Positions 5,453 through 41,331 of a stretch of DNA of 54,624 bases are shown in pieces (the first letter of the stretch is position 1; each line of letters opens with the position of its first letter). Below the pieces are notes generated by a model that saw only the letters and a program-made list of their open reading frames with translations, searched no databases and was not told where the DNA came from. The stretch is from NCBI GenBank assembly GCA_000934665.2, contig KZ538677.1:1-54624 (forward strand), given 5' to 3'. The translations under genes and the position numbers were made by a program. This DNA comes from Catajapyx aquilonaris. Taxonomy: Eukaryota.

Positions 5453-6758
5453 CTAATTAGCGTCGGGGCAATTTGCATAAATATCGCAGCAGTCATTGCG
5501 ACCGGAAGTGACAGCTTCCAGGATGGACTCTGCCCAGTCGTCATCGTCTTCTGGGATCGGGAGAGCCAGATTTCTGCCAAATGGGTGATAATAATTAGTC
5601 AGCTGCTAAGAGCTACATGCAAAATAATCTTGCTGGAATGACCTTACGTTAGAATATCGGCGATAATTGCGGCACTGTTGCCAAAAGTGTCCCTAACCCT
5701 ACGAACAGTCTCGCATGCAGTCTTCTGGAAGCAGATTAAAGGTGGCCTATCTTTCTTCTTGGTGTAGGTTGCCGAAGAGCCTAAAAAGTTGAGCAGATCC
5801 TTCACAGTCTCGGCCATCCCACCATTGTCCTTTTCTCGCGGTTCCTCCTGTTTCGGCTGTTGATCTTCGGCATCTCCCTTCTGGTGTCCATCCTCAGCTC
5901 TCTGCATCATCTCCCTGAATTCCTCCAACCATGAAGGCCCATCCTGGGTGATGTTAGCCGTGGTGTTGTCCACCACCATTGTCACATCTTCCACATTGAC
6001 ATCACCACCAGAACCTAACCTAACCGATAACGTCAAATTCCTTATGTTTTGACCCCGTTGTCTCCCCCCATTTGACAGTCTCACCTTGAAGCGTCACTTG
6101 AATCGGCTTCTCTCGTCTCCCTTCTCCAACTACCTCCCAGTCGAAAGGCAGCTCGCGTCGTGACCTGTCCTGTGACCGCATAAAACCGATATTAGCGGAT
6201 GTCACCCCGGTGCCACCAGTGCCGCCAGTGCTTGTGCCTGTCGGTGTGCCCGTGCCTGTTACCGTCGCAGTTGGGGTTCCGGTAGTAGTGGGCATCATCA
6301 TCATCATCTTCTTGTTGGACAGTGCGTTCTGCAAGGTACCAGCGGTAAGTGGGCCTTTTATGCCGAATGACCTCAAGCGGAACGATCATAATTAGTCGAA
6401 TGGTTTCTGCTCACCTGGATGAGTTTGAGGAAGTACATGAAACTTAGGAGGGCCAAGGCGTTGACTGCTGTGCTGCTGGCCACATCACCATGTCCACTAC
6501 TGCTACCGTACCTGAGTCAATACAGATGTCAATATAGTTCGTGTCATTGGATGTCACAAATGTTAGGCTTACCCGCCACCGGAGGCTGCAGCGGAGGCTA
6601 GGTCATCTAAAGGACCTATTCTTCTGGGAGGGACTTGAGGTTGCGTGTATGGTCGGGATGGGTACGATGGGTAGACGTAATTATGAGGCGCTGCGTTATA
6701 GGCTGGTGCATGATGCGGTTGAAAACCGGAGTAGCTCTGCATGTCTCCAGGCACGTAT
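5453..6758 (-). CDS. Cluster gene A (5'-incomplete): membrane/secreted protein with a Tyr/Pro-rich region, hydrophobic helix, Thr/Gly-rich linker and C-terminal DM4/DM12-like Cys module
   Basis: Phase-consistent GT-AG exons 6758-6573, 6511-6415, 6328-6085, 6014-5648, 5573-5453 (stop TAG), at least 337 aa. Spliced sequence includes ...AVNALALLSFMYFLKLIQ|NALSNKKMMMMMPTTTGTP...DRSRRELP...LICFQKTACE...EAVTSGRNDCCDIYANCPDAN*. The start exon was not resolved; an alternative acceptor exists at 6792. Confidence 0.85.
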
Positions 6759-39400: not shown

Positions 39401-41331
39401 GAGGGAACATTGGTGCAAGTGCAATGTCGGTAAAGGGGTCATGTCCTGTTCCCCAGGAGGTTAGGTTGCCAGACACCTCCTTGGTGCAGGTGAGAGACCC
39501 TCCTGACGCAGGTGAAAGGAAAGTTCCCCAGGCGGGGATCGAACCTGGGGCCTTTCACTCAGCAAGCCGAGACGTTACCATCTCGGCCATCTACACCTCC
39601 CCNAATAATAATAATAATAATAATAATAATAATAAATTATTATTATTATTATTATTATTATTATTATTATTATTAATAATAATAATAATAATAATAATAA
39701 TAATAATAATAATTCATACTCGTTATCAACCTATCGGCTCTTTAGGGGGGAAGTCTTTGTTTTGCCTGGAACTCTTTGCTTTCATTTTACTGCGCTTTTT
39801 GGGATAGGATAGGGACGGAAGGAAGCGGCTGTGGCCGATTAATTATGGAAGCAACTCCGGAATTTTCCTGGAAGGACCGTGGGAAACCACAGAAAACCAC
39901 GGTCAGAGTTGTCGGCCCCGGGATTTGATCCCAGGACCTCCCGATTAGCAGTCTGGCTCCTTAACCCCTACTCCAAACTGCTTCGGTAATTCCAAAATAT
40001 TATGTGAATGTCATTTTAATAATCCCAACGTGACAGGATGTGGTGGCCTGCCCAAGTTCACAGTTCAACAGGGGGGAAGGAGAATAAGTTGTGGATTGTG
40101 TAATCAAGTGACCAGATTCAGATGTGAATATCATGACAAGCTAATGTGTCCTTGAATGTCACATAAAACAAGTAACAATTTAAAACTGGTTCATAGTGTA
40201 AACTACATTTCTCTTTACATTTCTCCTCTTGCTAGACTATTGGACTGTAGAGTCTTGGACATTGCCACCACCTTGCATTTTCTTTTGGAATATTGTTGCA
40301 ACCACATTTTTAAGTACTGAGTTTTCAGAACTGAGATCACATTTGCATTGGTGGAAATTTTGCAAACTTGCCGGTATTAAGGTGATGATTCTGTACTCGA
40401 GTGAATCCACTTGTGCCTGGCAGGAACCCAAAGGAGGATTCCACACTTGCACCTCCCCTCTCTTGCAGTCTGGTGGGCCAAACATGAGTGTGACATTTTC
40501 CCATCAAAATGAATGTGAGCATGATTTTCAGATAATTTTATTTTCACTCGTCTTTTTCACAGCATATCAATCCATGTGCCCATCACTATCAGGAGAGTCA
40601 AGTACTTCGACCATAAACGGCCACAGTTCAAACCACAATAGCAGCACTTCTACAAATGGAGGAAAGCGCAAGCGTTCCTGGAGTCGGGCTGTCTTCTCCA
40701 ACCTTCAGAGAAAGGGTCTGGAGAAACGATTCCAAATACAAAAGTATATTACCAAGCCAGATCGGCGACAATTGGCTGCCACACTTGGACTCACTGATGC
40801 CCAGGTTGGTTAATACTTAATATCCATGATTGCATAATAATCTAGTTATTGCTTTAACCCCTTCCCTGTGGGGATATCACATGGACCTCTTTACCATAAA
40901 TTGTCTGAGCTCACAAGCGAGGGAGAGGTGATGGGTGGGGTGGTGCCGATGCAAGTGCAGTATCATAAGGGGCCGATTTCGAGCATTCCCCTATGTGGCT
41001 AGACTATATTGGCAATTCCACCAAAGATGAAGCTGGAGAGGCCTTGTAATTTGCATGAGGTGAGAAGGGCAGCCTGTGCTTGGGATGGAACCAGGGACAT
41101 CAATTATTTGTGGGCCCAAGCATACTGTGCTACTCCTCTTCCACTTCATAATTGCATATGAACACACACATCATTCGTTGATTGTGACAAATTTTGCAGG
41201 TGAAGGTATGGTTTCAAAACCGAAGAATGAAGTGGCGGCACACAAAAGAGTCCAAGCCAGAAGCAGTAGTTCCTGTGCCTGCCTGTGTGAATGAAGATCC
41301 TGCAGATTCAACACGTGAAGACAGTGTTTAA
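33060..41331 (+). CDS. H2.0: Homeobox protein H2.0 / HLX orthologue (4 exons, 318 aa)
   Basis: Exons 33060-33474, 35708-35875, 40563-40804, 41200-41331; intron phases 1, 1, 0; 957 nt. eh1-like motif LKFGVDRILS. Homeodomain KRKRSWSRAVFSNLQRKGLEKRFQIQKYITKPDRRQLAATLGLTDAQ|VKVWFQNRRMKWRH is diagnostic of HLX/H2.0. Confidence 0.96.
35708..35875 (+). CDS. H2.0: H2.0 exon 2 (Cys motif CSECVSTLTRCC)
   Basis: Acceptor ctgtctctttcag|, donor G|gtacgt; 168 nt, phase 1-1, open in the required frame. Confidence 0.8.
37230..37528 (-). mobile_element. tRNA-derived SINE, family 1 copy 2 (H2.0 intron 2)
   Basis: B box GGTTCGAATCC on minus strand; exact 13-bp TSD TTATAGACTATAT at 37217-37229 and 37529-37541. 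Confidence 0.9.
38425..38635. repeat. Cluster of TTCGGCG/TTCGCC motifs, probable MITE remnant
   Basis: ATTCGGCG and related motifs recur 5-6 times in both orientations within about 200 bp. Confidence 0.45.
39243..39602 (-). mobile_element. tRNA-derived SINE, family 2
   Basis: Minus-strand head with A box TGGCCGAGATGG and B box GGTTCGATCC; (AAT)n tail at about 39243-39260. Confidence 0.75.
39604..39712. repeat. Compound (AAT)n-(ATT)n-(AAT)n microsatellite
   Basis: Read directly; the blocks switch orientation twice. Confidence 0.95.
39716..39987 (-). mobile_element. tRNA-derived SINE, family 1 copy 3
   Basis: Close reverse-complement match to 20383-20630. Confidence 0.88.
40563..40804 (+). 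CDS. H2.0: H2.0 exon 3 (homeodomain helices 1-2 and start of helix 3)
   Basis: Acceptor tctttttcacag|, donor CAG|gttggt; encodes RKRSWSRAVFSNLQRKGLEKRF...LTDAQ. Confidence 0.96.
41200..41331 (+). CDS. H2.0: H2.0 exon 4 (helix 3 and C-terminus)
   Basis: Acceptor attttgcag|; VKVWFQNRRMKWRHTKESKPEAVV...REDSV*, TAA at 41329-41331. Confidence 0.95.
   Translation: MKVWFQNRRMKWRHTKESKPEAVVPVPACVNEDPADSTREDSV

Follow-up and report, generated by a model that had tools for sequence, protein, structure and literature searches.

Four spliced genes, here called A to D, lie together on the minus strand of Catajapyx aquilonaris contig KZ538677.1 (5453-22848), next to a divergently transcribed homeobox gene, and the question raised by this locus is what the four encode and whether their proximity is inherited or accidental. 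We addressed it in a window of 54,624 nucleotides (nt), the whole stretch of contig that was analysed. A to D are confirmed, by their sequence, as real protein-coding genes whose products are predicted to enter the secretory pathway. Together they are a cluster of understudied families and not a new kind of system, and protein comparison indicates that the four do not form one family. The gene models are as follows:

5453..6742, minus strand: gene A, 332 amino acids (aa), 5 exons (6742-6573, 6511-6415, 6328-6085, 6014-5648 and 5573-5453).
9908..12306, minus strand: gene B, 300 aa, 7 exons (12306-12148, 11899-11765, 11460-11317, 10790-10707, 10407-10276, 10216-10095 and 10034-9908).
17819..18953, minus strand: gene C, 310 aa, 4 exons (18953-18836, 18758-18578, 18514-18256 and 18193-17819).
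21509..22848, minus strand: gene D, 300 aa, 3 exons (22848-22774, 22538-22320 and 22117-21509).

The models were rebuilt from the minus-strand sequence, for which stretches 5300-7300, 9000-12700, 17600-19400 and 21300-23400 were read. Each intron is GT-AG and each frame is open from ATG to stop, position 5453 being the last base of the stop codon of A. Codon frequencies were trained on B, C and the homeobox gene, and 198 stop-free open reading frames (ORFs; 60 codons or more) located outside the genes served as controls (maximum 0.164 bits per codon). In frame, A and D scored +0.231 and +0.338 bits per codon, and none of the 198 controls reached either value. Out-of-frame scores ranged from -0.26 to -0.05 overall, with -0.26 and -0.24 for A itself. 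The remaining long ORFs of the window gave no Pfam family at E≤0.01 except for low-complexity rows.

An initial annotation, made from the DNA letters, had proposed four same-strand spliced genes within 17 kilobases (kb) and of low mutual similarity. The GT-AG models span 17.4 kb, and comparison of the four proteins likewise found the similarity low. Signal peptides had been assigned to B, C and D, which agrees with the strong N-terminal hydropathy of B and C (best 9-mer 2.51 and 2.77), but the value for D is weaker (2.08); A has no such segment (-0.44). The cysteine (Cys) module that had been noted at the ends of A, B and C is present in each as a C-terminal Cx5C ... Cx6C pattern, and the sequence carries all three of the basic sites listed earlier, RSRR (A), RARR (C) and KR (D, residues 126-127), although cleavage at them would be a prediction. 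The idea of a shared design held in part, in that the Cys module appears homologous in A and B, but profiles do not tie C to them and D shares only a transmembrane module with A.

The predicted layouts differ accordingly among the four. A has a Pro/Tyr-rich N-terminus with no signal peptide, then a hydrophobic helix, a Thr/Gly-rich linker, RSRR, an acidic stretch and the Cys module. In B, a signal peptide and a basic, conserved N-terminal part are followed by two amphipathic FSWG repeats rich in Gly, a helical region and a DM4/DM12 domain with six Cys (C231, C237, C243, C255, C290 and C297). C has a signal peptide, RARR, amphipathic helices, a hydrophobic helix and a C-terminal four-Cys helical domain, and D a weak signal peptide, a Gly/Tyr-rich region, one strong transmembrane helix and a Lys-rich tail. 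The elements on which the comparisons below draw are:

6418..6483, minus strand: hydrophobic, probable transmembrane helix of A, residues 67-88 (hydropathy 1.6 over 19 aa).
6155..6166, minus strand: RSRR of A, residues 144-147, a possible furin-type site read from the sequence, with predicted cleavage.
5468..5733, minus strand: C-terminal Cys module of A (C265, C271, C321/C322 and C328), split by a 74-nt intron (5574-5647).
9911..10216, minus strand: DM4/DM12 domain of B (exon 6, a 60-nt in-frame readable intron and exon 7).
17822..18193, minus strand: exon 4 of C, the conserved C-terminal domain (C217, C223, C282 and C289; 124 aa), with near-invariant columns C, C, P, Q, P, C, C.
18867..18878, minus strand: RARR of C, residues 26-29, followed by Q and an LDPFG motif, read from the sequence.
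21674..21739, minus strand: transmembrane helix of D, residues 225-246 (hydropathy 2.51).

The arrangement recurs elsewhere. Metagenome contigs were scanned with a 10-sequence alignment of the C domain, which returned five loci. In one of these (L002, 12.2 kb), three genes share a strand: first comes a C-like one (1481-2190), followed by a B-like one (5976-8423) and by an ORF whose helix is A-like (9975-10556). The seven exons of the B-like gene match those of B in order, and the C and B genes are ~38-40% identical to their counterparts in the window. The A-like ORF aligned with the A helix at 42.5% identity over 40 aa (E 1.8e-7 without composition correction, E 2.1 with it) and also carries two Arg-rich sites and a Cys pair. 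Because the order C, B, A-like recurs at this level of identity, the cluster is likely to be old, as the initial annotation had supposed, and the order C, B, A appears to be inherited and older than the split between C. aquilonaris and a second arthropod. In the same L002 ORF, positions 10011-10130 read uninterrupted across the junction of A exons 2 and 3 (6415-6511 / 6328), with residues that match the spliced product of A; this uninterrupted reading supports the exon 2/3 splice and implies that an intron was gained or lost between the species.

In Nesidiocoris tenuis, an annotated protein of 437 aa (P0041) has one half that is D/A-like and another that is C-like. Its N-terminal half aligned with the helix region of D (57 aa at 33% identity; E 1.7e-6 in a set of four sequences), which suggests that D/A-like and C-like genes are adjacent in this mirid bug, if the fusion is an annotation artefact. 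Another long entry, a Lepeophtheirus salmonis protein named OGDH (P0070, 611 aa), looks like an annotation merge of a C-family gene with an unrelated enzyme.

For B, the C-terminal domain matched positions 13-86 of the 86-position Pfam profile PF07841 (DM4_12) with 29.7 bits (E 1e-6; cut-off 22), and with 30.1 bits in a second scan. Four of eight B-family proteins matched the same model at E≤0.1, just under the cut-off (best 20.3 bits). On the strength of the match above the curated cut-off and of these family matches, B is a DM4/DM12 protein, predicted to be secreted. Searching with a profile of exon 5 built from two sequences (window and L002) retrieved 11 proteins, including full-length ones of 274-357 aa from transcript-sized contigs and a relative from the ostracod Darwinula stevensoni. 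The seven-exon model is collinear from end to end with eight transcript-derived crustacean proteins, and B matched a family profile built without the window sequence at E 1e-91, with 46% identity to one member (P0167) over 310 aa; the conserved helix is ~67-75% identical between species. Intron 6 of B (10035-10094, 60 nt) is a multiple of three and stop-free, so that its retention would add 20 residues with the frame intact, and no matching insertion was seen in the B homologues.

Among the literature matches listed for PF07841, one paper concerned the domain (PMC12825958), the others referring to the Dm412 transposon or to unrelated words. This paper, a planthopper study, describes DM4_12 as a 115-aa motif of unknown function with four conserved Cys, with which both Osiris 17 and Osiris 24 end. 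Four Cys near the C-terminus, the feature by which that study recognises DM4/DM12 (PMC12825958), are found in A, B and C.

The Cys module of A can be related to that of B. The last 93 residues of A aligned with a profile of the B-family module in hhalign (E 4.2e-4, probability 34%) over 73 columns that include both Cys pairs, and in both genes a phase-2 intron lies exactly 22 residues past the second Cys of Cx5C. Given the hhalign alignment and the same place and phase of the intron, we take the A module to be a divergent DM4/DM12 domain and a paralogue of the B module. Compared as whole proteins, A and B gave blastp E 0.009 over 102 aa, and the full A model against the B-family hidden Markov model gave E 0.056 in a four-sequence set, which is not significant. 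Exons 4 and 5 of A, scanned against Pfam one by one across the intron split, gave no DM4_12 match at E≤10. Exon 4 (5650-6012) also gave a weak Pfam row (E 0.1, 13.5 bits against a cut-off of 25) for DEC-1_C, which is part of a Drosophila eggshell protein; the row is probably noise from the acidic low-complexity stretch of A. With regard to an upstream signal-peptide exon for A, there was a single candidate (ATG 7422), which was rejected since its donor phase is incompatible with all three candidate acceptors; a search near A for N-terminal exons like those of D found none.

The N-terminal part of A is related to D instead. The two share a Gly/Tyr-rich stretch followed by a hydrophobic helix and a Lys/Met patch, and the helix region of A matched D with blastp E 4.6e-6 without composition correction. 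Searched against 2217 six-frame ORFs, the same region gave as its best non-self matches the L002 ORF 9975-10556 (39.3 bits) and exon 3 of D (29.6 bits), and the next best, at 19.6 bits, marks the noise floor. D is predicted to span the membrane once, through a module related to that of A. No D-like transmembrane motif was found in L002 or in L001, another of the five loci, in both of which little upstream sequence is present.

With these comparisons in hand, the neighbourhood could still be accidental: B and C would then be genuine genes without kinship, and A, D or both either decaying duplicates or spurious ORF predictions. Neither A nor D has a Pfam match or a named database homologue (the Atlas recognition score of A, 1755, is low), the relationship of C to A and B is not demonstrable, and L001 has no B-like neighbour, all of which speak for such an accident. 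The accident would, however, have to produce intact multi-exon frames with canonical splice sites in A and D, codon usage above that of all 198 control ORFs, an intron of identical position and phase in A and B, and a C, B, A-like order that appears again in L002. We consider this very unlikely, and prefer to read the cluster as a set of real genes in an inherited order.

C is the member with the widest set of relatives. A phmmer search with exon 4 against 1.84 billion representative proteins gave 69 matches at E≤1e-3, 11 of them at E≤1e-10; a word-indexed search of exon 4 against longer proteins found nothing. Twenty of the 69 were looked up, and the 17 with a source name are all called "uncharacterized", "hypothetical" or "unnamed". 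The family includes crustaceans (Palaemon carinicauda, Oratosquilla oratoria, Eurytemora, Tigriopus californicus and Lepeophtheirus salmonis), insects (Anabrus simplex, Lutzomyia longipalpis, Musca vetustissima, Teleopsis dalmanni, Nesidiocoris tenuis, Apolygus lucorum, Halyomorpha halys, Photinus pyralis and Exocentrus adspersus), the collembolan Allacma fusca and the millipede Chamberlinius hualienensis; the groups represented are thus a decapod, a stomatopod, copepods, Collembola, Orthoptera, Hemiptera, Coleoptera, Diptera and a millipede. The C model aligned by blastp with the Palaemon protein (P0002) at E 4.5e-56 over residues 3-294, and this full-length alignment validates the gene model. 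With Drosophila melanogaster CG32040 (P0173) it aligned at E 1.9e-17 over residues 121-283 (~27% identity), and C is an orthologue of this unnamed arthropod family that includes CG32040. A hydrophobic N-terminus is present in 42 of 46 full-length members. Exon 4 of C gave no DM4_12 match at E≤10, and none of the scanned C-family proteins reached the threshold of any Pfam family. The initial annotation had likened both B and C to unnamed conserved insect proteins; this holds for C, whose family spans insects and is uncharacterized, but B belongs to a named family. It had also allowed that the cluster might already have a name, and part of it does, DM4/DM12 for B and the CG32040 group for C. Intron 2 of C (18515-18577, 63 nt) is, like intron 6 of B, a multiple of three and stop-free, so that retention would add 21 residues with the frame intact; the region is too variable in the homologues to judge.

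Structure models were obtained for both families. The AlphaFold model of P0002 (57-sequence alignment) has a mean predicted local distance difference test score (pLDDT) of 67.9, with a confident all-helical domain at residues ~230-340 (block-mean pLDDT ~79-95; conserved exon-4 region ~71-95), a hydrophobic-helix region at ~75-83 and an N-terminal half of low-confidence helix (under 60). Against the PDB, Foldseek gave no match for this model at E≤0.001, and VIA-align against 48,161 chains gave at best Z 5.4, with a root-mean-square deviation of 5.2 over 88 residues, to a membrane transporter, which is in the noise range for helical models. The B-family model (8 sequences) is poor (mean pLDDT 45.9) and has long amphipathic helices predicted in the N-terminal half. 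Neither the C-family nor the B-family profile matched a PDB sequence at E≤1.

Such helices could also belong to lipid-binding or membrane-active carriers of the exchangeable-apolipoprotein type, acting in haemolymph or moulting fluid and not in a matrix. Long amphipathic helices are modelled in the N-terminal halves of both the C and B families, and the C family gave single weak Pfam rows for Apolipoprotein (E 0.048) and ApoLp-III (E 0.14). Those rows are far under the curated cut-offs and come from one member each, the N-terminal halves are modelled with pLDDT under 60, and there was no fold match to a solved apolipoprotein, the best VIA hits (Z 5.4) being to unrelated membrane proteins. A carrier role is accordingly one to which we assign little probability.

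The basic sites raise a different possibility, namely that convertases release secreted bioactive peptides (neuropeptides, hormones or antimicrobials) from these proteins, with the amphipathic helices as the active products. The sites RSRR in A, RARR in C and KR in D would suit this, as would two features of B, its strongly conserved basic N-terminal part and its repeats of Gly-rich, amphipathic FSWG units. R-x-x-R together with Q/LDPFG is kept in three malacostracan crustacean relatives of C, one unnamed Logan sequence and one orthopteran, and exon 4 of C fell to an Atlas 'Proctolin family protein' cluster with a score of 0.87, which is a lead only and below the 0.9 lead level. Yet R-x-x-R is missing in 41 of the 46 full-length C relatives, no dibasic sites flank the FSWG repeats of B, and the strongest conservation lies in helical Cys domains of 100 aa, not in short peptides. 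RYLPT occurs in none of the six frames of the window, and C was rejected as a proctolin precursor. In a fly study, moreover, CG32040 is placed in bristle shaft cells and not in neurons (PMC13502693). Taken together, these points make peptide precursors an improbable account of the cluster.

That expression report bears directly on the reading that we favour, for which we hold slightly better than even confidence: a secretory-pathway cluster of a DM4/DM12 protein (B), a divergent relative (A), a membrane protein (D) and a CG32040-type protein (C), inherited in order and acting in the cuticle matrix. By hybridization chain reaction (HCR) in situ, it reports CG32040, together with mtg and CG14280, in chemosensory-bristle shaft cells, with essentially no signal in mechanosensory bristles (PMC13502693); a second paper lists CG32040 in a table. 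Bristle shaft cells are cuticle-secreting cells. It is the shaft-cell signal, the presence of DM4_12 in Osiris 17 and 24, the signal peptides and the Cys modules that point to cuticle-forming cells, and a role of the cluster proteins in extracellular matrix or cuticle is plausible by analogy. The matrix role proposed in the initial annotation fits the shaft-cell expression of CG32040 (PMC13502693), the role itself being an inference.

Under this cuticle-matrix reading, epidermal cells that secrete cuticle would produce the A-D proteins, and signal peptidase would trim them. A furin-type convertase may also cut A at RSRR, past the Thr/Gly-rich stalk, and C at RARR, ahead of the conserved Q...LDPFG. 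While cuticle is being formed, the site of action of the proteins would be the apical extracellular matrix or the apical membrane; the working parts would be the disulfide-locked helical modules, which amphipathic or transmembrane helices might tether at membranes.

Several observations weigh against this picture. The cuticle role depends on a single expression report, for a fly orthologue that is ~27% identical to C. Homology of C with A and B could not be shown despite the same Cys spacing: hhalign gave probabilities of 1-3% against the A or B modules (2.6% for the C domain against the B module), aligning merely 16 columns (Cx5C) or the last-Cys motif, and DM4_12 was matched at E≤0.1 by 2 of 70 and 2 of 57 C-family members, all below the cut-off and no more than in unrelated families. 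Only 5 of the 46 full-length relatives retain the R-x-x-R that follows the signal peptide in C, and processing there would therefore not be family-wide. The sole database homologue of A is one L002 ORF, a match that fades to E 2.1 under composition correction, and L001 has a C-like gene with no B-like gene in the 10 kb downstream. The signal peptide of D is weak, and if D were N-out, as that peptide would imply, its homology to A would clash with the extracellular-looking C-terminal part of A.

The homeobox gene next to the cluster raises the further question of a regulatory tie:

33060..41331, plus strand: homeobox gene, 262 aa, exons 33060-33474, 40563-40804 and 41200-41331, with its stop at 41331.

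Its product matched the Pfam Homeodomain model (E 2.2e-9); among solved homeodomains, those closest to it are NK-like (BarH-like 1, E 4e-10, and Nkx-2.5). By its homeodomain sequence we take the gene to be a putative member of the H2.0/Hlx class. The D and homeobox genes are transcribed divergently, head-to-head, with 10.2 kb from ATG to ATG; the initial annotation had put the cluster about 10 kb from a divergent H2.0 gene, and the distance is borne out. A to D and H2.0 might constitute one conserved, co-regulated unit whose linkage has been kept across arthropods by shared regulation. The head-to-head layout around a 10.2-kb intergenic region, the C-B-A order kept in L002 and the D/A-like and C-like fusion model in the mirid bug could be taken in this sense. 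On the other side, no homeobox was found in the 4.4 kb (L001) and 1.4 kb (L002) upstream of the C-like genes, and in the fly, CG32040 is presumably on 3L and H2.0 on 2L, which we count against a universal link. One paper describes H2.0 as a member of the NK2 homeobox cluster expressed in visceral mesoderm (PMC13088399), a site that differs from the bristle shaft cells reported for CG32040. A common unit is thus hardly probable, and the proposed tie to H2.0 is so far without support; the presence of Hlx/H2.0 next to the cluster is most likely plain synteny and not a functional unit.

Other features of the window lie outside the genes, among them a repeat found in two copies:

20383..20585 (between C and D) and 39785-39987 (Hlx intron), inverted pair: interspersed repeat of 203 nt, 93% complementary, outside genes.

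Its translated frames resemble a repeat present in many arthropod genomes. Three ORFs (4165-4659, 48974-49279 and 52082-52336) carry motifs like those of mariner/Tc1-type transposases; none gave a Pfam match at E≤0.01, from which we infer that they are probably decayed copies. Inverted repeat arms (51851-51970 / 52297-52416) lie beside one of these ORFs. Runs of N (assembly gaps) and A/T-rich microsatellites are present at 39560-39620, in the Hlx intron, and at ~48700-48830, downstream, and touch no modelled exon.

These results give a named handle to two "dark" arthropod families, the CG32040 group, which Pfam does not model, and a DM4/DM12 branch in crustaceans, and place both in a gene order that would predate the split of two quite divergent arthropods. 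A bolder version, which we regard as doubtful, is that the C-B-A(-D) array is an ancient apical-matrix cluster, pancrustacean or mandibulate in age and a counterpart or relative of the Osiris locus through DM4/DM12, in which the CG32040-type member, with an undescribed disulfide-locked helical fold, would build specialised cuticle, for example porous sensory cuticle.

Set beside known systems, the cluster resembles several in part. C and CG32040 each have the hydrophobic-helix motif and a C-terminal domain with four Cys, but the fly protein is without the R-x-x-R / LDPFG N-terminal motif. As in the Pfam DM4/DM12 family, the modules of B and A are C-terminal and have paired Cys, and B differs by two extra Cys and by a long N-terminal part with FSWG repeats outside the Pfam model. 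C resembles the proctolin precursor in being a small arthropod protein, predicted to be secreted, in which a basic site follows the signal peptide. The vitelline-membrane and eggshell genes, which the initial annotation had placed (26A) beside Drosophila H2.0 (26B), are, like A to D, clustered and encode secreted, Cys-containing matrix proteins, but there was no Pfam vitelline-membrane match in the window, and the only eggshell-related row was that for DEC-1_C in exon 4 of A.

The closest comparison is with the Osiris genes, which have been linked to specialised cuticle. Like A to D, they form a tandem arthropod cluster encoding proteins with signal peptides or transmembrane segments and paired Cys. 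The initial annotation had offered them as a precedent, and the analogy is apt, fitting better than could be known then, because the domain of B, DM4_12, is also described at the C-terminus of two planthopper Osiris proteins, Osiris 17 and Osiris 24 (PMC12825958). The two systems differ in that DUF1676 (PF07898) was found in none of the Pfam scans of the window exons or of B- and C-family members, and in that the AQxLAY motif, which follows the transmembrane helix in Osiris proteins, is absent from the A-D models. They differ also in range: Osiris is described as insect-specific in the planthopper study (PMC12825958), whereas the A-D families reach crustaceans and a millipede. If the link to cuticle is true, the cluster supplies testable candidates for how the epidermis shapes specialised cuticle, now studied mainly through Osiris, and carries that question over to crustaceans, which are said to lack Osiris.

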